This document shows, in pieces, positions 6,350-56,083 of a DNA stretch of 64,000 nucleotides. A model generated the notes under the pieces. It ran no database searches. It worked only from the letters and a program-made list of their open reading frames with translations, and was not told the DNA's origin. The stretch's first letter is position 1, and each line of letters opens with the position of its first letter. Both the position numbers and the translations under genes were made by a program. This DNA comes from an uncultured Chloroflexia bacterium (GTDB lineage Bacteria > Chloroflexota > Limnocylindria > Limnocylindrales > CSP1-4), in the NCBI GenBank assembly GCA_963778955.1, contig CAVZWI010000001.1:147980-211979 (forward strand). Direction: 5' to 3'.

Positions 6350-7558
6350 TCAGCGGCGCTGTTGCCAGGACTTGCCCTCGACAGCGACCGAGGGGGCGTA
6401 GACGATCTCGACCTGCTGCATGGCGCGGATGTCCGGCGCGCCCAAGGCCGCCATCGACTGACGCAGCGCACCCACCAGGTTCTCCGTGCCATCGGTAACG
6501 CGCGAGGGGCCGAAGAGGATGCGCTCCATCGGCCCGACGGTGCCCACTTGGATGCGAGTGCCGCGCGGCAGCGTGGGCGACGGGGCGGCCATACCCCAGT
6601 TTGTGCCGTGGCCGGGTGCCTCTTCCGCCCGCGCCAGGGGTGAGCCGAGCATCAGCGCATCGGCGCCGGCAGCGATGGCCTTGGCCATCTCGCCACCACG
6701 TCGCATACCGCCATCGCCGATGACCGGCACGTAGCGGCCGGTCCGCACCAGGTGCTCCTCGCGCGCCGCGGCGACGTCCGCGATGGCCGACACCTGCGGC
6801 ACACCGATACCCAGGACCTCCCGCGTGGTGCACGCCGCACCCGGACCCACACCCACGAAGATGGCCGCGATGCCCTGCTCCATCAGCGCCGCGGCGGCCT
6901 CGTACGAGGTCGTGTTGCCGACCGCCACGGGGATGCCCATGAGGCGTGTGAACTCAGCCAGCTCCAGCGGTTCATAGCCACTGGCGAGGTGCTGTGGCGA
7001 GGAGACCTGTGACTGCACCAGGAAGACGTCTGCGCCGAGCTCGGCGCAGATCGGCCCCCACTGGCGTGCCGCGGCCGGCGTGGCGGAGATGACCGCGGGT
7101 GAACCGGCCGCGTGCAGCTCGCGGATGCGTTGCGCGACGAGCTCCTGTGAGATCGGCGGTTCGTACGCGGCCGAGAGGACCTCCTGGACCTCATCCGCAG
7201 CCGCCGTGGCGATGTGGCGAAGCACGGTCGCGGGGTCCTCGTAGCGCGCCTGCACACCCTCGAGGTTCATCACGGCAAGACCGCCCAGCCCGGCCAGGAT
7301 GCCGGCGCAGCGGACATCGACGACCGCGTCCATCGAAGCCGCCAGCACCGGGATGCCCAGTGGCAGGCCGGCGAACTCGACCGAGAGGTCGACATCGTCG
7401 GGCTCGACCGTGCGTGTGCCGGGCGCCAGCGAGACGTCGTCGAACCCGTAGGCGTGGCGGAGGTTCGCGACCTTGGAGGCTCGGCGGCCCGGAGCGGAGG
7501 TGATAGCGGGGGCGGTCTCGTTGACCTGGTCCTGTGTACTGCCGCCCCTGATGGTCAC
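6350..7558 (-). CDS. IMP dehydrogenase family protein (GuaB3-like, no CBS pair)
   Basis: C-terminal part of ORF 6350..8395, with motifs [34 protein letters not shown] and [17 protein letters not shown] take the GTG at 7558 as start. The rest of the 681-aa ORF is antisense to the next gene. Confidence 0.85.
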
Positions 7559-7609
7559 GATCGATGGACTCCTCCTGCACGGCACCCGCGGTGGCGGCAG
7601 TATACCGAG

Positions 7610-8644
7610 GTGACCACCTTCCAGAACGAGCCCGCCCAGGTGACGCTGGCCGATGTCCAGGCTGCGGCCGATGTCCTGACCGGCGTGGCCCTGCGTACGC
7701 CGCTGCTGGCCTTCGGGCCTATCGACGACGACATCGGTGCGCCGCGTGTCTGGCTCAAGCCCGAGAACCTGCAGCCCATCGGCGCCTTCAAGATCCGCGG
7801 TGCCTATAACGCCCTCGCCTCGCTGTCGGCCGAAGAGCGGGCGCGCGGCGTGGTCACCCACTCCAGCGGCAACCATGCCCAGGGCATCGCCCGGGCCGCC
7901 CGCATGCTGGGGATGCACGCGGTCATCGTGATGCCCAGCGATGCCCCAGCCATCAAGGTCGCCGGCGTCCTCGCCGACGGTGCCGAGATCGACTTCGTCG
8001 GGTCGGACAACGAAGAGCGCATCCGACGCGCCGATGCGCTGGCGGCCGAACGAGACCTGGTGCTCATCCCCTCCTTCGATGACGCTCGCATCGTGGCCGG
8101 CCAGGGCACCATCGGGTTGGAGATCGTGGAGCAGCTTGCCGAGATGGGGCGGGCCAACGAACCGCTGACGGTGCTGGTGCCCATCGGTGGTGGTGGCCTT
8201 TCGTCGGGCGTCTGCGTGGCCGTCAAGGGTCTGCGGCCGGACGCCACGGTCATCGGTGTGGAGCCGGAACTGGCTGCCGATGCTGCCGAGTCCATCCGTG
8301 AGGACCGCATCGTGCGCTGGGCACCGGAACTCACCGGCCGCACCATCGCCGACGGCGTCCGAACCAGCGCGCTCGGCCGCATCCCCTTCTCCCACCTGCG
8401 GCGGCTCATCGACGACGTGGTCACCGTCAGCGAGGACGACATCAGACGCGCCATGGCGGAGGCCGCCACTCGAGCGCGCATCGTAGCCGAGCCATCCGGC
8501 GCGGTCTCGATCGCGGCGTGGCTGCGCTACGGCGACGAGCTACCTAACGCCGACGCCGCCGACACCGTCATGATCGTCAGCGGCGGCAACGTGGATCCGG
8601 GGGTGTATCAGTCACTGCTGGCCGAGGCCGCCACGCTCGGCTGA
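7610..8644 (+). CDS. PLP-dependent threonine/serine dehydratase family protein
   Basis: Motifs ENLQPIGAFKIRGAYN (PLP lysine) and HSSGNHAQGIA. In-frame GTG at 7610. The upstream part of ORF 7214..8644 overlaps the divergent gene and is discounted. Confidence 0.85.
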   Translation: MTTFQNEPAQVTLADVQAAADVLTGVALRTPLLAFGPIDDDIGAPRVWLKPENLQPIGAFKIRGAYNALASLSAEERARGVVTHSSGNHAQGIARAARMLGMHAVIVMPSDAPAIKVAGVLADGAEIDFVGSDNEERIRRADALAAERDLVLIPSFDDARIVAGQGTIGLEIVEQLAEMGRANEPLTVLVPIGGGGLSSGVCVAVKGLRPDATVIGVEPELAADAAESIREDRIVRWAPELTGRTIADGVRTSALGRIPFSHLRRLIDDVVTVSEDDIRRAMAEAATRARIVAEPSGAVSIAAWLRYGDELPNADAADTVMIVSGGNVDPGVYQSLLAEAATLG

Positions 8645-9811: not shown

Positions 9812-9879
9812 CGAACGACGGGCGGTCATCCTGATTGGGGATATTCGAAGGGACTCTTGGGGCTCGGGAGCATCGGGTC

Positions 9880-10052
9880 CGCCTGGGTCAAGCCATGCGG
9901 CCCTTGACCCTCTGACCGGGTCGCCGGCCCAGGCGCGTGCCCACCACACCGCGACGGTCCTGCCCGACGGTCGCGTCCTCGTGGTCGGGGGCGATGATGG
10001 CGACGACGGCTTCTTCGCCTCAGCGGAATTCCGGGAGCCCGCCGACCGATAA
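9880..10052 (+). pseudogene. single Kelch-blade fragment
   Basis: A frame ending at TAA 10050-10052 reads ...ALDPLTGSPAQARAHHTATVLPDGRVLVVGGDDGDDGFFASAEFREP, one Kelch-type blade. There is no start codon and no further blades. Confidence 0.3.
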
Positions 10053-10175: not shown

Positions 10176-10851
10176 CTACGGGCCGGTCCGCTCCAGGAGG
10201 TCGTCCACGGTGCGACCGACCTCTGCCGCCACCGCATCCACCCCGAGGCTGCCATCGAGCAACATCCAGCGCTCGGGGTCGGCCGCGGCCATCTCGTGGT
10301 AGCCCGCGCGCACCCGCTCGTGGAAGGCCAGGTCGTGTCGAGCCGCATCCTCGAACCGCGTCAGCTCGTCGGCATGTCCCTGGTCCCGCCGGGCCAGGCC
10401 CACCTCCACCGGCACGTCCAGTACCAGCACCAGGTCCGGCTGCAGGCCGCGCGTCGATAGCTCGGCGATGACGCTGAGCATCCCGCGGTCCACGCCGCTG
10501 CCGTAGCCCTGGTAGGCCATGCTGGAGGTGGCGTAGCGGTCAAGCACCACGGTCTCGCCGCGGGCCAGGGCCGGCAGGATGACGTCCGCCACCAGCTGGG
10601 AGCGGGCGGCGTTGAACAGCAGCGCGTCGGCCACGGGTCCGCGTGGCACATCCGCGGGATCCAGCAGGATGTGACGGATCTGCTCGCCCAGCGGCGTGCC
10701 ACCAGGTTCGCGCGTCTCGGTCACCGTCATGCCGAGGGCCCGCAGGTGCTCGGCCAACAAGCGTGCTTGTACCGACTTGCCGGCACCATCGGGACCTTCG
10801 AGGACGATGAACAGGCCGGATCCCGGCCTCGCGCGCCCCCTCTAGCGCCAT
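10176..10851 (-). CDS. tmk: dTMP (thymidylate) kinase, frame break at 10819-10822
   Basis: P-loop [15 protein letters not shown] and DRY motifs. The main frame has no ATG/GTG/TTG upstream of the P-loop. ATG at 10851 ([11 protein letters not shown]) joins [15 protein letters not shown] if one nucleotide is removed at GGATCC. Confidence 0.85.
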
Positions 10852-12962
10852 GCCCGAACCTTCTCCGGGTAGAGCCGGACCCGCCGGAACGGCTCGCGAC
10901 CGCGAGAACGCGAGACGACGTTGGCAGCCTCAGCCGCCCGGTGCTGGAGCTTGCGCAGATACGCATTCTGAGGAGAGAGCTCCACCGGCCGCGACTCGGT
11001 GCGCACCAGGCCGATGGCGTCCTCCAGCTCACGCATGGCCACGTCCTGGGGGTCACTGTCGAGCGCGTACAGGCTGGTCAGGATCGTCTGCATCTGCTCG
11101 ATCGTGTTCGACTTGAGCACGTAGATGGGGATGCCACGGGCCTCTGCCTCGCGGATCAACGGCGACTTCTGCTTGTAGCTGCTGCGCAGGGTGATGACCA
11201 CGTCGGCCTCGTCAGGCTCACGCACCACCACCACCGGCAGCTGCAGATCCCTGACGGCTTGCTCCAGGCGCTTGCGGCTGATGGCGTAGCCAAGCACATT
11301 GAGCGGCTGCAGCTGGACGATGGCTCCATCGCGGTCGGACAGCCGGATGAGCGATCTCTCCTCCTCGCGCGTGCCTGCAGGGACCTCAGCATCGACGTCT
11401 ACGGAGGGGTCGGTCTCCGGGGCGGTCTCGTCCGCCAGATCCTGCGCCTCCATCTCATCGGCCATCAGCTCGGTCATGGCACGATCGGCCGAAGCTCGCC
11501 ACTCAGCCTGGCGTTCCAGTTCGCGGGCATCGCGGGCGCGCTGGTCTGGCTCCTGCGAGCCACGTTCCATGGGGCCCCGATCAGCGATGGCTCCGGCGCG
11601 GAAGACGGAAGCGGGAACCGGAGCGGCACCGGCGCCGGTGCGGCCACGAGATGCATCGCCCGGCCAGCCCTCCGTGCCACGGCGACCACGGCCTCGGCCG
11701 CGAGGCGCGGCCCCGGACCGCCCCAAGGCGTCAAGATCGGTGGCACCTCGGCCAGGAAGCCCCGGACCACCAGCGAAGCCACCAAGACCGCTGCCGACGA
11801 GGCCACCAAAGCGCTCACCCGGCATGCGCTCGCGAGGTCCGGGACGTGGTCGCGCCTGTGAACGGTGCACGCCGCCCTCGTCACGCCAGCGCATCTCCGG
11901 CGCCAACGCGTCACCGCGCAGCATGGCATCGATGGTCTCGGCGACGTCGGCGTGCACCGCCACGCGGTCACGGTCCTGGATCTCCACCACCACATCGAAG
12001 GTGGGCGGCGCCTTGCGCTCCAGCACGGACTTCTGGGTGCGGCGCCGGCGCGCCTCGTCGTCACCCAGGGTGACCGTCTGGATGCCGCCGATGAGGTCTG
12101 ACAGCGTGGGGTTCAGCATCAGGTTGTCAAGGTTGTTGCCGTGCGCGGTACCGATGAGCTGCACACCACGTTCGGCGATGGTGCGGGCCGCCAGCGCCTC
12201 CAGCTCCGTGCCGATCTCATCGATGACGATGACCTCCGGCATGTGGTTCTCGACCGCCTCGATCATGACCGCGTGCTGCAGATCGGGCGTCTTGACCTGC
12301 ATGCGGCGGGCGCGGCCGATGCCGGGGTGCGGGATATCTCCGTCGCCGGCGATCTCATTGCTGGTATCGACGATGACGACGCGCTTGTCGAGGTCGTCAG
12401 CCAGCACACGCGCCGCTTCGCGCAGCATGGTGGTCTTGCCGATGCCGGGGCGGCCCATGATGAGGATCGACTGACCCGATTCGACCAGGTCGTCGACGAT
12501 CTCGATGGTGCCGAAGACGGCGCGGCCGACACGACACGTCAGACCCACGATCTTGCCGTTGCGGTTGCGGATGGCGCTGATGCGGTGCAGCGTCCGCTCG
12601 ATGCCGGCGCGATTGTCCTCACCGAAGGAGCCCACGTGCTCGACCACGTACTGGATGTCGTCGGGCCCGATCTCGCGCTCCAGCAGGACCTCCTCGCCGC
12701 CACCGCCGAAGCGCGCCTCAGGCTTGCGACCCAGGTCCATGACTACCTCGATGATCGAACTCACCTGCTTGAGCGACCGCATGCGCTCGCCGATCTCCGG
12801 CGGGAGCGCGTCGAGTAGCGCGTCGAGGTCGTCGGTGACCACGGGATGGATGTGGCCCCGGGGTTCGGACTGGGCGGCCGGCGGGATCCTCGTGCTCAGG
12901 GACCCCTCCACGGACATGGGTTCCTCGGCGGACATGTGTTCCTCCGATGGCGGCGTAGTCAT
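10842..12962 (-). CDS. Ycf45/SpoIIIAA-like AAA ATPase with C-terminal R3H domain
   Basis: 706-aa ORF. Walker [10 protein letters not shown], Walker [10 protein letters not shown], and GTAHG. A Gly/Arg/Pro-rich low-complexity linker precedes the C-terminal R3H-like segment ([16 protein letters not shown]...). Confidence 0.85.
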
Positions 12963-14057
12963 CAGACGGCCGGCACCAGCGACGGTTCAGCGACCCGCAC
13001 CAGCGCCTCCTTGACCAGCAGGGAGACCGTGGCGATGGCCTGCATGCCGTGGTCCTCGAGTCGACGGTCGATCGGTGATTTCATAGGTCCGCACGCAGGC
13101 CATGACCCCGTGCTGGTGGGCGGGACTGGCGGAGCGGCCGACGGCTCCGCTGCGCTTGCCGATGACACCCAGTCCGTAGCGGATGAGGGTCGCGGTATCG
13201 TGCTCCGGCAGCGCCATCAGCCGCATGTAGTGCGGTTGCTGCTCCTTGGCCACGCCCAGCTGCAGCATCGCGGCCAGGCCCCGGCCGTCGCTCGACTCCT
13301 GGACATAGGCCTCCATGTCGGCAAAGCGAAGTAGCGGCGTGAGTGAGGTGCGTGGCACCGACGACCGACTTGGCAGGTGCTCCCAGTCGGGCAGGCGGTA
13401 ACTCTCCAGGCGCGCCACCGGGGCCGGGGTGACGCGTTTGTACAGCGCCGCCAGATCGACCGAATCGAGCGGCGTGGCCGGTCGGATGTGCTGGCTGCTC
13501 GCGTCGAGGCTGCGCAAGCTGGGGAAACGTCGGCGTGGTTCACGGAAGAGGATGGTCTCCTCGCCGTAGCGGGCGAAACCAGCCTGCATGAAGAGTTCCA
13601 CGTTGCCGCCTCGGTCTGCGCAGGCGACATGGAAGCGGACGGCCCCGCGGCGCGAGCCGTCACGCAGGAGGTGCTGGACCATCCGGTATCGGATGTCTCC
13701 GGCCGCGCCCTGGTCCACCGCGTCGAGCTCGACGATGGTCCACTCGTCACGATTGGCGTCACGTTCGACGCGCGCCAGGCCCGCCAAGCGACCATCCTCC
13801 TCGTAGACGTACATCTGGTCGTTGGGCCGGAACGCACCCAGCGGCATGCGGAAAAGGCTGAAGACCGAGACGTGGCTGGCCGTCACCGGCAGCCCCAGCG
13901 AACGCATGGAGCGCACTGGCTGGTCGGGAGGCGCAGCGCCACCGTCCCGGCCCATCTCGATGCTGGGGTGAGCCAGGCGCGACAACTCCCCGACCGCAGC
14001 CAGGTCTGTCAGCCGGGCCGCCCTGACGTGGCCCGAGCGAGGCAGCGCCGGCATCAA
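12962..14057 (-). CDS. GNAT-family acetyltransferase-like protein (probable frame break 13070-13081)
   Basis: GNAT core: [18 protein letters not shown]...[24 protein letters not shown]...[12 protein letters not shown]. After ...VRTYE a better C-terminus ([32 protein letters not shown]) lies in the frame of ORF 12962..13168. Confidence 0.7.
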
Positions 14058-26901: not shown

Positions 26902-26932
26902 GTCGCGGCGGTTGCACGCTGGGGGCCCGTGT

Positions 26933-27039
26933 GTCGGCCCGGTCCGGTGCGGTGCCTCGTGAGGCATCGGCTGGGGCACCTGAGGGTCGGCCCGATCCGG
27001 TGCAGTTCTTCGCCATTTGTCGGCTGGGGCACCGTAAGG
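26933..27039. repeat. imperfect tandem duplication of a unit of about 53 bp in an intergenic spacer
   Basis: GTCGGCCCGGTCCGGTGCGG...CATCGGCTGGGGCACCTGAGG is followed by GTCGGCCCGATCCGGTGCAG...TTGTCGGCTGGGGCACCGTAAGG. Confidence 0.75.
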
Positions 27040-34634: not shown

Positions 34635-35983
34635 CTACGGCGTAAGGCTCCAGAGCTCGCGACCGTGCTCGCCATCGCTGGCGCTGAAGAGGAGTACCCC
34701 GCCGAGCTTCACCAGCTCCCGCGGGAACGACGAGCCCGACGGATCGATGTCCGCAGCCTCGACCGTTCCCGCGGTGGTCCCATCGCTCATCCAGAGCTCG
34801 TGGTCGAGCAGCCTCCAGTCCGTGCCATCGTCCTCGCCCGGACCGGCGGCGAACCAGAGCCGGCCGTCCAGCCCAACGCACCTCAGCGTGACCGCGGAGG
34901 TGAACCAGTCGGCCGTGCCGCCCTTGACGAGTTCCGTTCCGGCAGCGGTCGCGTCACTGACCCAGAGCTCGTCGCGAGAGGGCAGTGACCGCGAGGAACG
35001 TGTCATCCACAATCGGCCGAGGTGCTTCTGCATGCCGGGCAACGGACGGACGCGAGGCACGACCGCGCCGGTGCCCGACTTGGTGCCGCCGCTCCCGAAG
35101 AGCCGGAGCCGGATGCTGTCGGTCCAGCCGTTGAAATAGATGTCGTCACCAAGCACGGCGAACTCCCCGGTGGCGAAGATGCCGCTCACGGGCCTGGTGC
35201 CGGCTCGGCTGCCGTCGGACCACCACAGACGAGGCGGCTCCAGGCAGCCGTCGCCACCACCGCACCAGTCCGGCCCATGGTGCGCGCCGCCGACGAAGAA
35301 GATGCGCCCGCGGAACGGCGTCAAACCGCTGCTGTTCAGCCACCGGGGAGAGATGCGCTTGGTGCCGGTGCTCGTGGCATCGGTCACCCAGAGTGCGCCA
35401 CCAGCGTTGAAATACAAGCGTGATCGCATGACGGCCGACCCGACCAGGTCGATGTCCGGGATGGCACGCACCAGCTGCGTGGACTTGCCCGTTCCGTCCG
35501 TGCGCCACAGGTCCTCGTAGCGGCGACTGAAGTAGGCCCGGCTGCCGAGCGCGGCGATCTGGAGATCGCCGGAGCCCTTGCTGCCCGGCGCCAGGTCCCG
35601 CACCAGGCGGGTGCCCTTGCGCGTGCCGTCGCTGATCCACAGTTCGCGGCCGTGGCTGCCATCGTCGGCACTGAAGTACAGCCGATCCCGACACGCGTCA
35701 GGGAGCGCGGCGCAGAGCCACCAGAGCCGGGGCGGATGTCGCGGACCAGGCGGGTGCCAACGGGAGTGCCGTCAGTGGCCCACAGCTCTCGGCCGTTGGT
35801 GCCATCGGTGGCGCTGAAGAACACCGTCTTGCCGACGACGGTGAGCGACTCCGGCCCGGATCCCGACCAAGGATGGATGTCAGCGACGAGCGTGGCAGAC
35901 GGAGCTGCGGCCACGCCGACTGGAGGGATGAGCAGGACCGCGGCGATGACGATCACGACGGCCCAGGTGACGACGGCGCGCAT
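34635..35983 (-). CDS. ELWxxDGT-repeat exported protein (frame break at 35684-35689)
   Basis: Signal peptide MRAVVTWAVVIVIAAVLLIPPVGVAAA. Repeats: RELWATDGTPVGT, (RELWISDGTRKGT across the break), DLWRTDGTGKST, ELWVSDATAAGT and ELWMSDGTTAGT. ORFs 35384..36214 and 34635..35603 join if one G is added at GGGATCGG. Confidence 0.8.
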
Positions 35984-38722: not shown

Positions 38723-39073
38723 GGCGGAGGTCGCTGGTCTGTGGTCGGGCGTTCGCGCCGCGCGCGTCGCGGGTCACGGGTCGAGTACGAGGCAACCCGC
38801 AGGCAGCCAGCATGGGTGGGCGGACACGATGCGTGCCACCCTCGCAGTCGTGATGGATGCTCATGGTCGCTGGAGTGCGGGGCGCGCCGTGGTCGATGAC
38901 GCCCGACGTGCTGGTTGAGATCAGACGCGTTGACCCGGGCTACCCACATGGCGGCGAGCGGCGAGCTGAGCATGGGAGGGCCGTCCCGCTGACCCACGGA
39001 GGTGAAAGGGCATGCTCGGCGACGTGCCGGCCGGCATCGGCAAGCAGCTTTCGCAGTAGCCTCGCGAGCCGCT

Positions 39074-41655
39074 ATGGTGGAGCCCGTGCTTCTGGAACGG
39101 GACGCAGAACTGGATGTCCTGGAAGGGCTCGTCGCCGGCCTCGATCCGAGCGGCGGCAAGGTCGTGCTCATCCGCGGCGAGGCCGGCATCGGCAAGAGTG
39201 CCCTCGTCGCCCGCTTCGCCGAGCTTCGATCCCGCGAGGCGCACGTTCTCATCGGTGCCTGTGACGACCTGTTCATCCCGCAGCCGCTGGGGCCGTTCTG
39301 GGACATCGCTCGCGCGGAAGCGCGGCTGAGAGGACCACTCGAGATCGGTGATCGCCCACATTTGCTCGAGGCCGTGCTGAGCCTCCTGTCACATCCCACG
39401 CGTCCAACCATCCTGGTCATCGAGGACACACACTGGGCCGACGAGGCCACGCTCGACGCCATCCGATACATCGGCCGGACGATCGCCCGGACCAACGGCA
39501 TCCTGCTCCTCACGTACCGCGACGGTGACGTCGACGACGATCACCCACTGCGCGGGGTGATCGGTGACATCCCGGCCGGGGATGTCGTCCGCATCCAGCT
39601 CCACGGTCTCTCGATGGACGCGGTGACGTCGATGGTGGCTGACTCGGGCCTGGATCCGGCCGCGGTCCTGGCTGCCACGCGTGGCAATCCCTTCCTGGTG
39701 ACCGAGATGGCCTCTGGGCCAAGCGACGGTGTCGCTTCCTCACTGGAGGAATCGGTGATGGCGAGGGTGCACAAGCTCTCGGTCGGGGCGCGACAGACGC
39801 TCGATGCCCTCGCCGTCATCCCGGAGGCCATACCGCAGCGCGACGCGTTGTCGCTGGCCGGGGTGGATGAGAGCCGCTTGCGCGAGTGCGAGCAGCGTGG
39901 GCTGCTGGAGTCACGTGCCGGGATGGTGGCGTTCCGCCACGAGCTCATCCGCCAGACGATCGAGTCGGCGATGACCGCCGGCGAGCAGGTGGCCCGGCAC
40001 CGTGCGGTGCTCGATCAACTCTCAGACGAGACCCACTCGAGCCTGCTCATCCACTGCGCCGTCGAGGTCGATGACATCGACCGTCTCCTCGAGCTCGCGC
40101 CACGGTCCGCTCGCTATGCTGCGGCCACTGGTAGTCACATCCAGGCAGTCGAGGACTTCAGAGAGGTAGGACCGTACCTCGACCGCTTCGGCCCGGAGGC
40201 CCTGGGGCCGTTGCTCGACGACTGGGCACGCGAGGAGGACCTCGTGGACGACGCTGCCGAGGCCATCCGCCTCAATGCGCTGGCCCGAGATCGACTACCG
40301 AGCGCTGGGAGACCGCAGCTCGGAGTCGCGCGCCCTCACCAAGGCGGCGCAGTACTACGAGAACCACGGGCAACGCGACCAGGCAGTGGAACTCGCCCGT
40401 GAAGCCCTTGATGTGCTCGGCGCAGACCCTGATGGCTCGGACCTGGCCCGAGCCCTCGAGGCCAACGTGTATCTGCAGATGATGGCCGGCAAGGTCTCTG
40501 CGGTAACCGAGCTGGTCCAGCGGACGATCGATGCCGGTGGAACGAACCTCGACGAAAAGGTACCTCATCCGGATCCTTTGCCACCGTGGGACCATGGCCA
40601 ATGTCACCAGCTACCCTGAGGGACGAGCCAGTCTCGACGAGGCTAGAGCGCGCGCGGAGGCTGCCGGGGAATGGTTCGAGGAGTGTCGCGCGTCGGTCAA
40701 TCACGCCTGGGCAGCCGCGGAGTTCCGGGATTTCCCAGTCGCGTCCGACTACGCGCAGCGCGCCATCGCTTCAGCCGCACGACACGCACTCTTGGGTATC
40801 GAGGCCTACGCCAAGGCGATACATGCGAGGGTCCTGGACTTCGAAGGCAGGTGGGACGACGCCACCGACCTGGCGCGAGATCTATCCGAGGCTGGCGCAA
40901 TGGCCCAGATGGTCGTCCTCCCCATCCTCGGGGTGATCGAGGCAAGAAGAGGCCGAACGTCCGCCCCGACGGTGTTGGCACAGGCCTGGCAGATGGCCTC
41001 TGCCACCCATGAATTCCAGCGGCTGGCCCCAGCGGCCTCGGCGAGCGCCGAACACGCCTGGATCTTGGGGAGTGGCGGTATCACCGTCGCTGAGCTCACG
41101 GGCGTGATGAACGCCGGCCTTGACCAGGGTTTCGAGTGGTCGCCTGGGTCGATCGCCTTCTGGCTCTGGGAACTCGGGGAGTTGTCAGTGCCCCCTGAGG
41201 GCATCGCTGAACCATATCGGCTGACGATCGAGGGCCGGACCGACGAAGCAGCGGCCATCTGGGAAGCACGGGGGCTCCCCTACGAGCGTGCGCTGGCGCT
41301 CATGCACGGTAGTCTGGCCGATCAGCTAGAGGCGCTCGAGGCATTCGAGACGCTCGGCGCGTCCGCGGTGGCGGCCAGGTTCAGGAAGAGGTTGCGGGAG
41401 CAGGGCGTAGCCGTTCCGCGCGGCAAGGGTCGCGAGACGAGGCGACACATCGCCGGGCTGACCGCACGACAGGCAGAGGTCCTGCGACTCCTGGATGAGG
41501 GTCTCTCCAACACCGAGATCGCCGACCGGCTCTTCGTCTCGCTTCGCACGGTCGAGAGCCATGTCTCCGCGGTGCTCGACAAGCTGGATGTCTCCACTCG
41601 GGAGGAAGCCGTGTCCCGGGCGCGCACCGAGGGGCTCCTGGGGGCTGCCAGCTAG
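39074..41655 (+). CDS. LAL-type (large ATP-binding LuxR family) transcriptional regulator, read in three frames
   Basis: Walker A IRGEAGIGKSAL. A TPR-like middle region. C-terminal LuxR HTH LTARQAEVLRLLDEGLSNTEIADRLFVSLRTVESHV. ORFs 39002..40402, 40275..40619 and 40531..41655 form one protein with +1 corrections near 40280-40292 and 40555-40558. Confidence 0.8.
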
Positions 41656-48927: not shown

Positions 48928-50181
48928 CTACTTGATCCCGGCGGCCTTGCAGACCTTTTCCGTGACGGCACTGCACAGGTCTGACTTGGAGATGAACTTG
49001 TCCTTGATGACCGTCTCAGCCATGTTCTTCTCGGTGACCCAGGTAGGAGTCAGGAGCGTGGCCGGCTGTGTCATCGTCGAGTCTGTTGGATCCGTGGTCG
49101 TCCCGTTGACGAGCTCAGCGGGCGGAACCTGTCCTGCGCGCAGGTAGCTCGCCAGGGCGACCGCAGCCTGTGCCTCGATGTAGATCGGCTTGTAGACCGA
49201 GCCGCACTGCCACCCCTGGAGGACGTACTCCATGCCCTGGATGGTCGCGTCCTGACCCGTGGTGGGGACCTTCTTGGCTGGCACGCCCGCGGCCTTGAGG
49301 ACGCTGATGACGGCGCTGGCCAGGCCATCGTTGGCCTCGACTGTGGCGTTGATGTTCGGATTGGCCGTGTAGGCCTGCTGGAAGATGGTGCCGCCTTGGG
49401 CATTGTCCCAACCTGGGGCGATCTGCTCACCCACCAGGGTCATGCCGTTGTTGGTGGCGCCGGGCGTGACCTGGGCCACCTGCTGGCCCCAGATCGCATC
49501 GTTGTAGCCCTTGGCGAAATCGATCGCGTTGGGGTCGGTGTCCTGCCCGCCGTCGAGCACGAACACCTGCGGGTCGGTGACGCCCCAGTCGGCCACGCAT
49601 TGGACGAATCCCTTGCCGATCAGTTCGCCGACCTGGACGTTGTCAAAGCTCACGTAGTAGGTGTCGGTGCCTTGGAACGTAGCCCGGTCGTAGCTGATCA
49701 TGGGGATTCCGGCGGCCGCGGCCGCGGCCTGGACGGCATTCCCGGTGTTGCTGTCGAGTGGGTCGACGACCAGGACCTTGGCGCCGGCGGCGATATCCGC
49801 TTGGGCCAGTGCCAGTTGCGAGGTCGCGGTACCCGCAGCGTTATCGATCTTGAAGTCGGACTCGCTGTAGCCGGCAGCTTTGAAGGCCTTCTTGAGATAC
49901 GGCAGGTCATAGCTCGTGTAGCGGGCCGATGTGGTCGTGTCAGGAAGGATCACGCCTACCAGACCGCTGCCGGCCGAGACCACTGGCTTAAGCTGCTTCA
50001 TGGCATCGAACGAGGCATCGAACGAGGACACGCTGAGCGAGGCGCCGGCGGCAGCTGATGGAGCCACCGAGGGCGCCGGCGACGCACTCGGGGACGCCGC
50101 CGCGGCGGCGGCGCCGCTGCTCGCGGCGGCCACCAACGCGAACACCACTGGACCCGTGACCGCAATGGTTCTCGATCTCAT
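48928..50181 (-). CDS. sugar ABC transporter substrate-binding protein
   Basis: Signal peptide followed by an Ala/Ser-rich linker. Periplasmic-binding-protein type I pattern (VGVILPDTTTSARY..., VLVVDPLDS). Confidence 0.88.
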   Translation of the reverse strand: MRSRTIAVTGPVVFALVAAASSGAAAAAASPSASPAPSVAPSAAAGASLSVSSFDASFDAMKQLKPVVSAGSGLVGVILPDTTTSARYTSYDLPYLKKAFKAAGYSESDFKIDNAAGTATSQLALAQADIAAGAKVLVVDPLDSNTGNAVQAAAAAAGIPMISYDRATFQGTDTYYVSFDNVQVGELIGKGFVQCVADWGVTDPQVFVLDGGQDTDPNAIDFAKGYNDAIWGQQVAQVTPGATNNGMTLVGEQIAPGWDNAQGGTIFQQAYTANPNINATVEANDGLASAVISVLKAAGVPAKKVPTTGQDATIQGMEYVLQGWQCGSVYKPIYIEAQAAVALASYLRAGQVPPAELVNGTTTDPTDSTMTQPATLLTPTWVTEKNMAETVIKDKFISKSDLCSAVTEKVCKAAGIK

Positions 50182-50219: not shown

Positions 50220-50746
50220 GGGGCACCCTGCTGTGTTGGCCGGACGAGCATGCGTCCGTCACACGGCCACGACATCGGTGCCAGCGCCCGATCCCCATGC
50301 CCGCTAGCGGCACAACGCGATCTCCCGCTGGCTGGAATGCGGACAGGGGCCCGCAGGTGGCATCCTCGAGCCATGCGCGTCCTGATCGTCGATGACAGTC
50401 CCGGTTTCCTCGACGCCGCCAGTCAGCTACTCCGACTGGAGGGTGTGGCGGTCGTCGGTGTCGCTTCGAGCGGGGAGGAAGCGCTCCACCTGGCCAGCGA
50501 ACTCCGTCCGGACGTCACGCTCATCGACATCGACCTCGGCGGCGATGACGGCATCGCCGTGGCACGCCGCCTAGCCGGGTCGGAGGGTCATCCCGCCGGA
50601 GACATCGTCCTCATCTCCACCCATGCCGAGGACGAGTTCGCGGAGCTCATCGAGGCCAGCCCTGCGATCGGGTTCATCCCCAAGCTGGCCCTCACCGCGG
50701 AGGCCATCGAGCGACTCGCTGGTCGGAAACCTCCCGAGGGGCGGTC
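50220..50746 (+). repeat. inverted repeat copy A (527 bp)
   Basis: Reverse complement of 54048-54574 with 2 mismatches by my base-by-base comparison (G/C at about 50243; T/C in AAGCTGGCC versus AAGCCGGCC). Confidence 0.95.
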
Positions 50747-50783
50747 TGACGGCCTATCGGTTGGGGATGTCAGCCTCCAGTAG
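50373..50783 (+). CDS. receiver-only response regulator (copy A)
   Basis: MRVLIVDDSPGF...VTLIDIDLGGDDG...LISTHAE...GFIPK. Its 3' end overlaps the convergent kinase gene by 30 nt. Confidence 0.8.
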   Translation: MRVLIVDDSPGFLDAASQLLRLEGVAVVGVASSGEEALHLASELRPDVTLIDIDLGGDDGIAVARRLAGSEGHPAGDIVLISTHAEDEFAELIEASPAIGFIPKLALTAEAIERLAGRKPPEGRSDGLSVGDVSLQ

Positions 50784-52660
50784 CGTCCCCTCGCCCGGTA
50801 CGCTGGTGATCTCAAGGTGTCCTCCGAGTGACTCCACGCGGTCGCGGAGTCCGGTGAGACCCGAACCGAGCGTCGGGTCTGCTCCGCCGATGCCATCGTC
50901 TCGAACCGCCACGTGCAGCGACCCATCCCGGTCCTCGAGTGTGACGTGCATCTCCCGGGCCGAGGCGTGCTTGGCGGCGTTGGTCATCGCCTCGGCGACG
51001 ACATAGTAGCCGGCCGCCTGGACGGGCTCGATCAACGGCACTTCCGTCCGGATGGCGAGCTGGACGGGGAGCGGAGAGCGCCGGGCCAGCGTGCGAATAG
51101 CGGCAGGCAGGCCACCGCGCGCCAGGGCGGCTGGGTAGATCCGCGCGAGATCTCGCGCAGCTCGTCGATCACCCTGGTGACATCCCCAGCGAGCTGCTCG
51201 ATCTGGGCTCGGAGCTCCGTCTGCTCAGGTGGGACGACCGCTGCGAGCGTACGGAGTCGGAGCCCCAGACTGACGAGGAGCTGCTGGGCCCCATCATGAA
51301 GATTGCGCTCGATCCGCCGCCTTGCATCGTCGGATGCCGCGACGATACGCAGGCGTGAGGCGGTGACCTCCGCACGCGCGTTCGCATTGGCGATCGCTGT
51401 CCCGACCAGCTCCGTGAACGCCGTCATCCACTCGTCGGCGTCATGCGCGAGCGGTTCCGTGCGTCGCGCGGCCTCCAGCACGCCCCACCGCTCACCCGCG
51501 ACGATGACCGGGCAGGCGATCGAGGACGTCATGCCCATCGCGTTTGATGGCCCTGCCGCGGGCCCGGTGAGCCTCGCGAGATCGTCGATGCGTGTCGTCA
51601 CCATCGATTGCCATGCTCGGTCCGCGATGCTGTCGCCAAGAGGTGTCAACGCGGCCACGTCTACCGGACCGTGACCTTGTTCCCACGCGGCGATCGAGAC
51701 GAAGCGTCCGTCCATCTCGTGCCGCCACAGGAAGGCCAGTTCGCTCGGCAGATGCTGCGCGAGCTCGCGAGCGACAGCTGCGAGGACCTCATCCGGCGCC
51801 CCGCCTTGGGCGACCAACGTGGCCACGCGCCGCAGTGCGGACTGCTGGTCGACGAGCCGGTGCTGCACCGCCTGGCTGTCCTCAAGCGATGCCGCGAGGC
51901 TGTTGAACGACCGCTCGAGCGTCCCGATCTCGGCCGTGCCCGTACCTGGCATGCGAACGGAAAGGTCGCCGGCAGCGAGACGGCCGGCCATGCGGGCAGC
52001 CTTGGTGATGGGTCGAACCATCATCCGGCCGAGATAGACGACGAATAGGGCGATCAGACCCACCGAGGCAGCGAAACCGACCGTGGCTGCTGCTGTCGCG
52101 CTGCGTGCGAGGCCACCCGCGGCCTCCTGACGAGAGATGTACGTCTCGCGCTCCGCCTCTGTGAACCCTTCGAGAAGCGATCGGAGCTCATCGATGCGCT
52201 GCTTCCCTGTCTCTGTCATCGTCACGCTCGCGGCGCTCGGGTCATTGCTCCGGACTGCTGCGATGAGCGGCAGGCCGTACTGCTCGATGTACGCGCTGCC
52301 GGCCCCGATGATCGCCTGGACACGCGCGGCCTGGGTGGGATCGTCGATGGAATCGGCGAGGGAGGACACCCTGCTCGGAAATGCTTGCCGTCCGGCATCC
52401 CACGGCTCGAGAAAGCGCTCGTCGTGCGTGATGACGAAGCCACGCAGGCCGGTCTCCATGTCGATCGCGAGTCGCTGCGCCTGGTCGGCTGATCGGAGGC
52501 GCTCCAGTGAGACCGTGACTTGATCGTCAGCCAGGTGCAGCTCTCTGACGGCAATGTTGAGGCTCAAGAAGCTGCCGCCGATCAGCAGCACGAGGATGGC
52601 GCCGGCCACGGTCATCCGCCCGGTCAGTCCGCTCAGCCGTGCGTCCATCGACCACCTCAC
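50754..52660 (-). CDS. sensor histidine kinase: CHASE3-HAMP-GAF-HisKA_3-HATPase (one nt missing at 51138-51141)
   Basis: The N-terminal TM helix and CHASE3-like region, then a GAF region. H-box RRIERNLHDGAQQ. After ELREISRG the expected IYPAALARGGLPAAIRTLARR...EVPLIEPVQAAGYYVVAEAMTNAAKH...GSGLTGLRDRVESLGG is in the frame of ORF 50754..51041. Confidence 0.85.
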
Positions 52661-53297
52661 ACTCGTGCCATGCCGAAGCGCCGACCCGGACCCAGCCGGA
52701 GCTGCCCTCGGCGATCCCGGCAGGGCGGTCGGAGATCAGGGCGTGTGGCGCCGGATCATCGCCCCCTCTTGTCCGATCACTCGAGCAGGCTATCAACTTC
52801 TCGTCGCCTCCATCGCCCGAGCGCGCCCTCGCGAGCGACTGCACTAGGAACGCATCCGCCTGGGAGTCCGCGCGGTCTTGGGGATCGATGCGGCCGGCCG
52901 TCGCCTCGAGCGACCGAGACGGGGCTGGGTGTCACGCCACTCAGTCGCGGAGCGCAACGACCAGTGTGCTGATCGAGGCATCGCCACCAGGTTGCTGAAT
53001 GCTCCGCGTACCCGTCGGTTCGCTTCTGCTCGCCTATGTTCACGACCGGGCCGATCTGGCTCAGCCGGATCATCGCCCGCAGCGGCATCGGCGCTGTCCG
53101 GGAGCGATCTTCGGCTTCGTAGCCTACTGGGCCAGCCGCAGCGAGCGCGACTTCGCGGCGACCAGTAGCCTCGCGATGATCTTGCCCACGACCTCGGCCC
53201 CTCGAGCCAGCACTCCTCACAACGCCGCAGTCAACTGCGATGGCCGCGCAGCTGCCCCAGCGACGATGGGGCCGAGACCCGTCGGATGGGCTTGGCG

Positions 53298-53990
53298 TTA
53301 GCGGCGGTCGAGGAACGTGACGACGGCGAGCACGCGGCGGTGGTCCTCGGCCGTCTCGGACACCCCGAGCTTCATCAGGATGCTTCGGACGTGCTTCTCG
53401 ATCGTGCCCTCGGTCACCCAGAGCTGATGGGCGATGCCGGCGTTCGACCGACCTTCGGCCATGAGCGCGAGGACCTCGCGCTCACGGGGTGACAGCGCGT
53501 CGAGCGGATCGTGCACACGCCTCGCTGCGACCAGCTCCTGCACAAGGCTCGGGTCAACGACCGCCGCCCCCTTGAGGACCCGGTCCAAGGTATCGATGAA
53601 GTCGTCGACGTCAGTGATCCGGCTCTTCAAGAGGTAGCCGGTCCGCTGGCCGCTCGCCAGCAGTTCGGCGGCCTGCTCCAACTCGACATGCGCGGACAGG
53701 ACGACGATGGCTGTCTCAGGGAGCTCCTCGCGGATCTGCTTGGCGGCGTCGAGCCCTTCGGTCGAGTGACTGGGCGGCATCCTGATGTCGACGATGACGA
53801 GGTCCGGGTGATGCTGGCGTGCATTCTCGAGCAGACTGGCGCCGTCACCAGCCTGGCCCACGACCTGTATGCCCGATCGCTCGAGGAGGCTGGCCAGGCC
53901 CTCGCGGAGCAGGACGTCGTCGTCGGCGATCACGGCTCGTGCGGGCGACTCAGCACGTCGGTCCGCATCGGCGCCCAGCGGCTCTGTCAT
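53298..53990 (-). CDS. NarL/FixJ-family response regulator (REC + LuxR HTH)
   Basis: VIADDDVLLREGL, LVIVDIRMP, and SPREREVLALMAEGRSNAGIAHQLWVTEGTIEKHV. ATG 53990 with AGGAG upstream. Confidence 0.9.
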   Translation of the reverse strand: MTEPLGADADRRAESPARAVIADDDVLLREGLASLLERSGIQVVGQAGDGASLLENARQHHPDLVIVDIRMPPSHSTEGLDAAKQIREELPETAIVVLSAHVELEQAAELLASGQRTGYLLKSRITDVDDFIDTLDRVLKGAAVVDPSLVQELVAARRVHDPLDALSPREREVLALMAEGRSNAGIAHQLWVTEGTIEKHVRSILMKLGVSETAEDHRRVLAVVTFLDRR

Positions 53991-54040
53991 GCTCACTCCT
54001 GACGACTCCAGGATAGTTAGGGGCCTCATCCTACGCGCTC

Positions 54041-54421
54041 TTACCCGGACCGCCCCTCGGGAGGTTTCCGACCAGCGAGTCGCTCGATGGCCTCCGCGGT
54101 GAGGGCCGGCTTGGGGATGAACCCGATCGCAGGGCTGGCCTCGATGAGCTCCGCGAACTCGTCCTCGGCATGGGTGGAGATGAGGACGATGTCTCCGGCG
54201 GGATGACCCTCCGACCCGGCTAGGCGGCGTGCCACGGCGATGCCGTCATCGCCGCCGAGGTCGATGTCGATGAGCGTGACGTCCGGACGGAGTTCGCTGG
54301 CCAGGTGGAGCGCTTCCTCCCCGCTCGAAGCGACACCGACGACCGCCACACCCTCCAGTCGGAGTAGCTGACTGGCGGCGTCGAGGAAACCGGGACTGTC
54401 ATCGACGATCAGGACGCGCAT
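54041..54421 (-). CDS. receiver-only response regulator (copy B)
   Basis: Identical to copy A except for one residue (L to P). The C-terminal tail differs after PPEGRS, where the repeat ends. It lies directly upstream of the NarL-type regulator on the same strand. Confidence 0.8.
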   Translation of the reverse strand: MRVLIVDDSPGFLDAASQLLRLEGVAVVGVASSGEEALHLASELRPDVTLIDIDLGGDDGIAVARRLAGSEGHPAGDIVLISTHAEDEFAELIEASPAIGFIPKPALTAEAIERLAGRKPPEGRSG

Positions 54422-54574
54422 GGCTCGAGGATGCCACCTGCGGGCCCCTGTCCGCATTCCAGCCAGCGGGAGATCGCGTTGTGCCGCTAGCGGGCATGGG
54501 GATCGGGCGCTGGCACCGATGTCGTGGCCGTGTGACGGACGCATGCTCGTCGGGCCAACACAGCAGGGTGCCCC
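54048..54574 (-). repeat. inverted repeat copy B (527 bp)
   Basis: See copy A. It includes 153 bp upstream of the receiver ATG. Confidence 0.95.
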
Positions 54575-54811
54575 AGGGTATCCAGTCCGCCAGGAGAGGT
54601 CGGTGCCGATGCATGCAACCACGGAGCGAGGCGCGCGATCGGGTGCTATGGCCCGGACGACTGTCGTGCGACGATCGGGTGTGCGCGACAGGTCCGAGGC
54701 CCCTCAACCTCACTTTCGTCGCCCATTCGCGCGGCCGGCCTCGGTCACCCGACCCGCGGACAGTGCACCAGTCCCCAGCTCTCGACAGTTGGATCGCCCA
54801 CAAGGAGCGTC

Positions 54812-56083
54812 GTGATCGCGCGCACGGCCTTCGTCGCCACCTCCCTACCCCAACGTTGCGGGATCGCCACGTTCACGCACGACCTGGCGTTGTCGACAGG
54901 CAATGGCGAGATCGTCGCACTGCATCCGCCCGGCCCGGCCCATCCGTATCCGCGCAGCGTCCACCATCGGATCAGACGAGACGAGCGCGAGGACTACGGG
55001 CGCGTCGCGCGATCGCTGGATCGGTGCAGCGATGTAGTCTCGGTCCAACACGAATACGGGATCTGGGGCGGACAGGACGGCGCGTACGTCCTCGACTTCG
55101 TCCGCGCTCTTCGACTGCCGTCCGTCGCCACGCTCCACACTGTGCTACGGAATCCAACGGCGAGACAGCGGGCGATACTCTTGGAGTTGATCGCCCTCGT
55201 GGATGCCACCGTGGTGATGTCTTCATCGGCCGCAGCGCTGTTGGCGAGTGCCTACGGCGTGGACGCTGCGCGGGTCAAGATCATCCCGCACGGCGTGCCC
55301 GACTTGCCGCTCGTCGCTGCCGACTCGGTGAAGCCGGCGCTCGGTCTCGAGGGGCGCAAGGTCATCCTGAGCTTCGGCCTGCTGGGTCCCGGTAAGGGCT
55401 ACGCCCACGCCATCGAAGCGATGCCCGAGGTTGTGGCGGCGCACCCGTCGGCGCTGTACGTGATGGTGGGTGCCACCCACCCGGACGTCCTTATCCACGA
55501 GGGTGAGGCCTACCGCGAGGGGTTAGTCGCCCAGGTTCGGCGGCTGGAGATGGAGGATCACGCTCGGTTCGTCGACAGCTTCGTCGGACCCGCCGAGCTG
55601 GCGCGCTGGCTCGAGGCGGCGGACGTCGTCGTCACGCCCTATCCGCAGCTCGACCAGATCGTCTCCGGGACACTGTCCTACGCGATGGGCGCCGGCCGTG
55701 CCATCATCTCGACGCCCTATACCTATGCAAGGGAGCTGCTGGCCGACGGTCGAGGCATGCTCGTGCCCCCGGGGTCGGCATCGGATCTCGCGGCAGCGCT
55801 TACCAACGTGCTCGGAGACGACAGCCTCCGGGCCGCCCTGGGCCGTCGCGCCTATGCGTACGGTCGCGGGATGGTCTGGTCCGCTGTCGGTGCTGAGTAC
55901 CGTCGTCTGCTCGAGCGGGTGACAAGGGCTGCTCGGCCGGGTCCGCTCTTGGCGTTGGCACCAGTGAGTGGCGAGGACGCCAACGTTCCGGCGGCCCAGC
56001 CGGCGCTGCACCATCGAGCCGAGTGTAGCCGCGCAGCGCGACGCGGCGAGTCCAGCGCTGCGATGGAAGAGACGACAGCATGA
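54812..56083 (+). CDS. GT4-family (group 1) glycosyltransferase
   Basis: 423-aa ORF with GTG start after AAGGAG. GT-B pattern: N-terminal half with QHEYGIWGG, C-terminal half with PYPQLDQIVSGTLSYAMGAGRAIISTP. Confidence 0.85.
   Translation: MIARTAFVATSLPQRCGIATFTHDLALSTGNGEIVALHPPGPAHPYPRSVHHRIRRDEREDYGRVARSLDRCSDVVSVQHEYGIWGGQDGAYVLDFVRALRLPSVATLHTVLRNPTARQRAILLELIALVDATVVMSSSAAALLASAYGVDAARVKIIPHGVPDLPLVAADSVKPALGLEGRKVILSFGLLGPGKGYAHAIEAMPEVVAAHPSALYVMVGATHPDVLIHEGEAYREGLVAQVRRLEMEDHARFVDSFVGPAELARWLEAADVVVTPYPQLDQIVSGTLSYAMGAGRAIISTPYTYARELLADGRGMLVPPGSASDLAAALTNVLGDDSLRAALGRRAYAYGRGMVWSAVGAEYRRLLERVTRAARPGPLLALAPVSGEDANVPAAQPALHHRAECSRAARRGESSAAMEETTA

Follow-up and report, generated by a model that had tools for sequence, protein, structure and literature searches.

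We analysed a 64,000-nt stretch of an uncultured Chloroflexia bacterium (assembly GCA_963778955.1, contig CAVZWI010000001.1; hereafter the window), in which a two-component signalling module is bracketed by two near-identical inverted copies of a gene for a receiver-only protein (REC). The module comprises a histidine kinase and a NarL-type DNA-binding regulator and lies between a sugar ATP-binding cassette (ABC) transporter operon on the left and a cluster of GT4, phosphomannose isomerase and GH130 genes on the right (Table 1). A repeat scan of the window delimited two arms of 527 nt separated by 3301 nt, and base-by-base comparison of arm A with the reverse complement of arm B gave exactly 2 mismatches in 527 nt (99.6% identity), with identity collapsing directly beyond both edges. 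Chance origin of the arms is excluded, as no second inverted repeat of at least 40 nt occurs within the 64 kb. Each arm holds 153 nt 5' of the start codon and the first 374 nt of the receiver-only gene, and REC-A and REC-B are both transcribed inward. A first-pass annotation made from the sequence alone had described the 527-bp repeats with two mismatches, their content of 153 bp upstream sequence plus a nearly whole receiver-only gene, and a 3301-bp interior holding the kinase, a 637-nt gap and the regulator between inward-reading receivers; repeat scan, coordinates and Pfam domains agree with that description. The arms encode no transposase, the receiver gene being their sole coding content, and the window contains no further copy of them. 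An origin from an insertion sequence (IS) or composite transposon was rejected, given that only the receiver gene is carried and that arm A has its orthologue at a chromosomal site in related genomes.

The receiver (Response_reg) domain is the only Pfam domain in REC-A and REC-B, and an output domain is absent from both. As read from the sequence, the receiver residues D7, D8, D52 (in an LID motif) and K104 are kept, and 1776 homologues were found at E<=1e-10, mostly of 120–132 aa. One mismatch between the arms (50242/54552, G vs C) is non-coding and lies 131 nt 5' of the REC start codon. The other (50686/54108, T vs C) changes the residue that follows the conserved K104, which is Leu105 in copy A and Pro105 in copy B. 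The two proteins hence differ at residue 105 as well as in their C-terminal tails, and the earlier statement that they diverge only in their last residues had to be corrected. The inner edge of arm A falls 8 nt ahead of the kinase stop codon, and REC-A and the kinase share 30 nt at their 3' ends (REC-A end 50783, kinase stop 50754), a convergent overlap that had been recognised previously. At the inner edge of arm B, homology with the regulator leader of relatives resumes after 11 nt (GCGTAGGATG...); these 11 nt of junction filler, CGGGTAAGAGC, provide the stop codon of REC-B, which lies 51 nt 5' of the regulator ATG. In the public assembly, a single contig of 1.75 Mb carries the annotations of both REC proteins.

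Table 1. Features of the receiver locus in the window and positions of the shared upstream element in three relatives (own numbering of each relative's locus).
Feature	Position	Strand	Basis or remark
Sugar ABC substrate-binding protein (SBP) gene, divergent from REC-A	48928..50181	-	Left flank, 39 nt from arm A
Arm A	50220..50746	+	153 nt from the SBP-REC divergent intergenic region (the larger part of it) plus REC-A codons 1-124
Conserved cis-element, arm A copy	50245..50352	+	Core ACATCGGTGCCAGC-N3-CGATC, imperfect palindrome GGTGCCAGC-N17-GCTRGCNNC
REC-A, single-domain response regulator, 136 aa	50373..50783	+	Pfam PF00072, E=5e-19; source annotation P0122
CHASE3-HAMP-GAF-HisKA_3-HATPase_c histidine kinase, frame broken at ~51141	50754..52660	-	Pfam, comparison with relatives
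Orphan spacer, 637 nt	52661..53297	.	Between regulator stop and kinase start; ~63 nt in relatives
NarL/LuxR-type response regulator (REC + GerE)	53298..53990	-	Pfam; orthologue of the relatives' regulator
Junction filler, 11 nt, CGGGTAAGAGC on minus strand	54037..54047	-	From arm B inner edge to regulator-leader homology
REC-B, single-domain response regulator, 126 aa	54041..54421	-	Pfam PF00072, E=2e-20; source annotation P0121
Arm B, derived inverted copy 5' of the NarL-type regulator	54048..54574	-	Not in relatives
Conserved cis-element, arm B copy	54442..54549	-	REC-type; located where relatives have the element of the regulator itself
GT4 glycosyltransferase, first gene of the mannose-related cluster	54812..56083	+	Right flank, 238 nt from arm B
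Element in L082	~9866-9972 and ~13110-13235		Sequence comparison
Element in L084	~7540-7650 and ~10850-10970		Sequence comparison
Element in L087	~7870-7985 and ~11165-11290		Sequence comparison

The ancestral layout was reconstructed from three related loci (L082, L084 and L087) with ~75–78% nucleotide identity to the window. Their gene order is sugar ABC operon (-), REC (+), kinase (-) and NarL-type regulator (-), with the kinase and the regulator converging on REC, and this three-gene module of kinase, DNA-binding regulator and receiver-only protein is kept in the relatives. Synteny on the SBP side is likewise kept in all three. The comparison of synteny in related genomes that the first-pass annotation had proposed gave a uniform answer: 3/3 relatives carry a single REC, located at the position of copy A (to which arm A is orthologous), and are devoid of copy B. 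In these genomes the regulator lies ~63 nt 5' of the kinase, with no REC 5' of the regulator and nothing separating the regulator from its upstream region. Alignment with L082 gave one collinear block of 6.1 kb, which begins in the ABC permease, includes REC and reaches into the kinase, and a second one over the regulator; relative to all three loci the orientation of the interior is unchanged from the ABC operon to the regulator. Since the relatives hold their only REC at the copy-A position and none 5' of the regulator, copy B is the derived copy. It separates the NarL-type regulator from the site of its former upstream element.

In a further genome (L086, 5652-9145), a kinase, a YflT-like gene and a receiver-only gene are followed by a NarL regulator 87 nt downstream. 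The receiver-then-regulator tandem, as made by copy B in the window, is the native, stable arrangement there.

Arm B was also found outside the source assembly. Together with both of its unique flanks it occurs in Logan contig L001 (SRR27973969), with 9 mismatches in 1009 nt, and similarly close (~99% identity) in Logan contig L085 (SRR28002843), two short-read assemblies from different, unrelated runs. Their outer flank is GT4-side sequence and their inner flank consists of the junction filler followed by the regulator leader and start. Because both contigs carry both arm B junctions in the same orientation, the placement of copy B is independently reproduced, and the orientation of arm B is the same in all three samples (window, L001 and L085). 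The first-pass annotation had considered an assembly problem, i.e., that assembly or polishing created a second copy, or a near-identity of the two copies, that the organism itself lacks. Apparent frameshifts in two genes of the window, the kinase and a large LuxR-family regulator, are signs of indel error that would fit such an origin, as would the fact that copy A was not recovered from other samples. However, two unrelated short-read assemblies reproduce both arm B junctions at 99% identity, copy A occupies the conserved ancestral position, where its left and right flanks are both orthologous to those of relatives, and the long reads implied by a contig of 1.75 Mb readily span 527 nt. Due to the recurrence of the junctions in two datasets and the ancestral position of copy A, at the site of the relatives' REC, an artefact is very unlikely and indeed barely credible, so that this suggestion is effectively excluded. 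Other searches returned little: a kinase scan of species-representative genomes, a set without the source species and its close relatives, yielded only paralogues (34–49% identity), and an exact 32-nt arm pattern gave 0 matches in metagenomes. The element-core pattern described below gave 70 metagenome matches, which were dismissed as chance matches because none carried the remainder of the element.

The three strains also place bounds on the age of the duplication. Among window-A, window-B, L001-B and L085-B, 7 of the 527 nt are variable, with 2 differences between A and B of the window, 5 between window-B and L001, 4 between window-B and L085, and 3 between L001 and L085. In the flanks, L001 differs from the window at 4/482 and L085 at 6/399 positions; the two are sister strains that have four flank differences from the window in common. 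The three strains are ~0.7–0.9% apart, and the A-B divergence of 0.38% is of a similar order. As all three share identical B junctions, the duplication is at least as old as their common ancestor. The notion of a very recent duplication thus stands in a refined form, with B as the derived copy and its origin older than the split of three strains ~0.7–0.9% apart. Near-identity of the arms mainly reflects this recency, which alone is sufficient, and occasional RecA-type gene conversion may add to their similarity.

Gene conversion, which had been proposed as another source of the high identity, is possible but weakly indicated by the substitution pattern. At two adjacent synonymous sites, 50714 and 50723, window-A equals window-B, and another base is shared by L001 and L085. 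Site 50714 is polarised, with A in both window copies and G in L001, L085 and both outgroups. Conversion in the lineage of the window would produce such a pattern, yet substitutions on the L001/L085 branch fit equally well. We consider it improbable, if not negligibly so, that the duplication is older, with RecA-dependent gene conversion still keeping the copies near-identical and the interior inverting now and then, as in tufA/tufB. Copy B differs from paralogue A at only 2 sites, as against 5 and 4 for the orthologues in L001 and L085, the state at 50714 sets both window copies apart from the other strains and both outgroups, and 527 nt at 99.6% identity are ample substrate for homologous recombination, for which Salmonella tuf offers a precedent of conversions coupled to inversion (PMC5485169). 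Yet the counts are tiny, and 50714 and 50723 may reflect substitutions on the L001/L085 branch together with one reversal to the favoured CGG codon. Furthermore, the A-B divergence of 0.38% is close to the strain divergence of ~0.6–0.9%, so that homogenisation is unneeded, and the duplication is not ancient because relatives at 75–78% identity are without copy B.

The comparison with tuf is nevertheless instructive. In Salmonella, about half of the selected conversions between the inverse tuf copies were accompanied by inversion (PMC5485169). As in tufA/tufB of Salmonella and E. coli (PMC5485169, PMC6735719), the window holds near-identical inverse copies on one chromosome without a dedicated recombinase, and in both cases the copies can recombine by homology, with transfer of sequence from one to the other or inversion of the DNA between them. 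The dimensions differ, with 527 nt and 3.3 kb between the copies here vs 1185 nt and 762 kb for tuf (PMC5485169; PMC6735719). Unlike tuf, the repeat described here includes the control region and ends just before the end of the gene; the duplication is recent and confined to one lineage, its signal of conversion is weak, and inversion has been seen only in tuf.

The sequences upstream of REC and of the regulator offer a clue to the origin of copy B. In L082, L084 and L087, an element of ~110 nt occurs 5' of both genes, ~3 kb apart and in inverted orientation because REC and the regulator converge. Its core reads ACATCGGTGCCAGC-N3-CGATC ... GCTGGCGCCATATCGCGATC ... GGGATGCGG, and it contains an imperfect palindrome, GGTGCCAGC-N17-GCTGGCRCC in the relatives. 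The element is probably the common operator of the system. An RNA-structure reading was dropped because the covariation term of RNAalifold for the shared element was ~0. On the REC side, and in L084 and L087 also on the regulator side, the element lies between divergent genes, with a sugar-related operon as its neighbour. As the relatives carry the element 5' of both converging genes, a short inverted repeat of ~75% identity preceded the duplication. In the window, the element core occurs exactly twice, once per arm, with no copy outside arm B, and the arm elements carry the REC-type variants (GAGCATGCGTC, CATGCC, ATGCGG), not those of the regulator type. Recognisable ancestral similarity between the REC-upstream and regulator-upstream sequences begins at ~50245, so that the first 25 nt of the arm, counted from its outer edge at 50220, lie outside it.

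Taken together, we judge it likely that the arms are a genuine, evolutionarily recent inverted segmental duplication that arose in place by element-primed copying and does not constitute a programmed switch. In this scenario a broken or stalled DNA end that arose in the lineage of the window, within the regulator's upstream element, would have paired with the REC-upstream element, and synthesis proceeding from the outer towards the inner edge would have copied the 29-nt leader and almost the whole REC gene. Non-homologous rejoining just 5' of the regulator leader would then have left the 11-nt filler, the regulator's own element having been replaced during copying. Homology-primed copying is favoured because the outer arm edge falls at the limit of the element and the element is present once per arm; it is the simplest reading of the repair mechanism, which we infer rather than demonstrate. 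The outcome is a second REC copy with a REC-type control element heading the regulator(-kinase) transcription unit.

A duplication associated with inversion, through staggered breaks or replicative inversion, followed by homologous re-inversion to the original orientation, has the attraction that it would leave exactly the footprint seen here, in which one end of a segment recurs as an inverted duplicate at the other, and the arms would readily permit the re-inversion. Such a bracketing duplicate is reported for Helicobacter pylori (Furuta et al. 2011, cited in PMC4671568). The two cases are alike in that a new paralogue arises as a by-product of rearrangement, and they differ in that the segment in the window is not inverted relative to relatives and in that its repeat edge meets a pre-existing homologous element, which points to homology-primed copying and not to inversion breakpoints. 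Because the interior is collinear with three relatives, the inversion-coupled route needs two events and not one, and it leaves unexplained both the coincidence of outer edge and element and the loss of the regulator's element. We therefore regard it as distinctly improbable.

Several observations weigh against the in-place copying that we prefer. The REC-upstream and regulator-upstream elements of the relatives are only ~75% identical, with exact runs of ~14–22 nt, which are enough for microhomology-type priming and poor for classical RecA pairing. The conversion signal that we allow for amounts to one polarised synonymous site, for which a back-mutation on the L001/L085 branch is an equal explanation. 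Searches for the junctions of copy A in other strains were negative, as a protein search with the kinase C-terminus returned no near-identical match and one with the SBP N-terminus returned none among the 120 proteins listed, where the source's own SBP was likewise unlisted. In addition, the contigs of Logan come from a de Bruijn assembly with k=31, and each 31-mer is present once in them (PMC12424806). That L001 and L085 run across both arm B edges implies that paths into the copy-A flanks were absent or pruned, and copy A may for this reason be absent, diverged or under-sampled in these two strains.

The present-day arms raise the question of inversion. The first-pass annotation had pointed out that recombination between them would recreate the same REC-regulator-kinase order on the other strand, and the geometry is as described, with inward-reading REC genes and the control region inside the arms. 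Flipping of the 3.3-kb interior by homologous recombination would be plausible as a rare event, given arms of 527 nt at 99.6% identity and the tufA/tufB precedent; an invertible segment is thus a possibility, not a finding. Flipping would alter nothing but the base at 50242 and the strand on which the unit lies, with gene order and arm-flank relations predicted to be identical. A programmed switch is unlikely, because the control region within the arms makes both orientations equivalent and because no recombinase lies nearby: the open reading frames (ORFs) tested between 37 and 64 kb contain no recombinase, integrase or transposase domain.

Known invertible switches, such as fimS/FimBE, hin/hix and the Bacteroides invertons, combine short repeats of ~10–40 bp with a nearby dedicated recombinase and an asymmetric, orientation-sensitive interior. 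The likeness to them is confined to inverted repeats around DNA that carries regulatory information; short repeats, a nearby recombinase and orientation-changed expression are all missing here. Phase variation that re-orients the kinase/regulator cassette relative to two flanking sugar operons would draw on the position of the bracketed regulatory cassette between two sugar-related operons and on the physical possibility of inversion via homologous recombination. It is opposed by the lack of a site-specific recombinase in the ORFs tested within ~13 kb, by the 527-nt length of the arms, unlike the short sites of known switches, and by the location of the control region within the arms, which gives the same promoter-gene and promoter-flank relations either way. 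Three independent samples moreover show one orientation at arm B, and the structure is wholly absent in relatives, so that we consider a functional switch highly improbable. A broader scheme, to which we assign a small chance, would have shared control elements of a regulon act as recombination seeds that paste a co-regulated gene onto another operon; the resulting RecA-flippable cassette would exist in coexisting orientations that affect the flanking sugar operons differently, by read-through or transcriptional interference.

Two-component systems with an accessory single-domain receiver are known, e.g., those with CheY-like phosphate sinks. The module in the window resembles them in encoding a kinase, a DNA-binding regulator and a receiver-only protein together, and it differs in that the dosage of the receiver gene is doubled; the receiver-only protein may serve as a sink, a competitor or a connector. 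This doubling of REC dosage, as inferred from gene number, is one consequence of the duplication; another is likely read-through from the REC-type element into the regulator, as REC-B is 51 nt from the regulator ATG and no terminator-like site was detected. The event is of a known kind, either a tuf-type inverse duplicate or the footprint of a duplication associated with inversion, with the modest twist that copying appears to have started from a regulatory element common to both genes. Those hallmarks of invertons, of duplication coupled to inversion and of IS-derived repeats that were tested are absent. The locus accordingly offers a clean, datable case of rewiring in a bacterial signalling module, in which a receiver gene lands at the head of its partner regulator's operon. 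It illustrates the birth of a paralogue, the remodelling of an operon and the creation of a new substrate for conversion or inversion, and involves no new mechanism. It also cautions annotators that they may be dealing with an inactive kinase, and that REC-A and REC-B differ in sequence.

The remaining genes of the cassette show signs of change of their own. The two-component pair is NarL-type, with a HisKA_3 and HATPase_c kinase and a REC and GerE regulator, the HATPase_c domain being out of frame. A 1-nt deletion at ~51141 (51135-51145, minus strand) disrupts the reading frame of the kinase, with GGC ATC in two relatives and GG- ATC in the window; as a result HATPase_c falls in a separate 95-aa ORF (P0123 in the depositor's annotation) next to a 542-aa ORF. 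Outside ~51141, all differences from the relatives are in-frame. The first-pass annotation had placed a CHASE3-GAF kinase in the interior, and these domains were found; the frameshift, however, had been overlooked. It represents either a very recent pseudogene or a consensus error, and, if it is real, the sensor is inactive and the locus may be decaying. Consensus indel errors are a serious alternative for the frameshifts of the window because related long-contig assemblies also hold broken genes, namely the kinase in L087 and the regulator in L082. Elsewhere in the window, a large ATPase-LuxR-type regulator (AAA_16 ... GerE) is split into 39002-40402 and 40531-41655 by an apparent frameshift near 40560, and this second broken gene (39002-41655) suggests assembly indel errors or real gene decay.

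The regulator start, formerly set at 54029, is most likely 53990, a position indicated by homology and by the depositor's protein of 230 aa with the N-terminus MTEPLGADA. The gap of 637 bp between regulator and kinase has the size given before, although its absence in relatives had gone unrecognised. Comparisons of this spacer with the relatives, with the remaining sequence of the window and with 84 loci revealed no similarity, and no Pfam domain, Rfam family, terminal inverted repeats or terminator were detected in it. It may uncouple the kinase from the regulator.

On the right side of the cassette, the flank varies among relatives. Homologues of the GT4 gene with 92% nucleotide identity occur in GCA_038251965.1 and in a Logan run (L089 312-1522 and L090 42-1252). 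Both have only a 1.2-kb block (54760-55970) in common with the window and differ in their neighbours, with a major facilitator superfamily (MFS) sugar transporter upstream, and for this reason they were dropped as evidence on the arm B junction. The 3' end of the GT4 gene in the window also differs from theirs, being 36 codons longer and overlapping the isomerase gene. Finally, the repeat scan recorded families of direct repeats at a distance from the cassette: 43-nt units with GTGTCGGCC motifs at 2194-2296, a 53-nt tandem pair at 26921-27026, and three 86-nt copies spaced 132–143 nt apart at 35463-35823.

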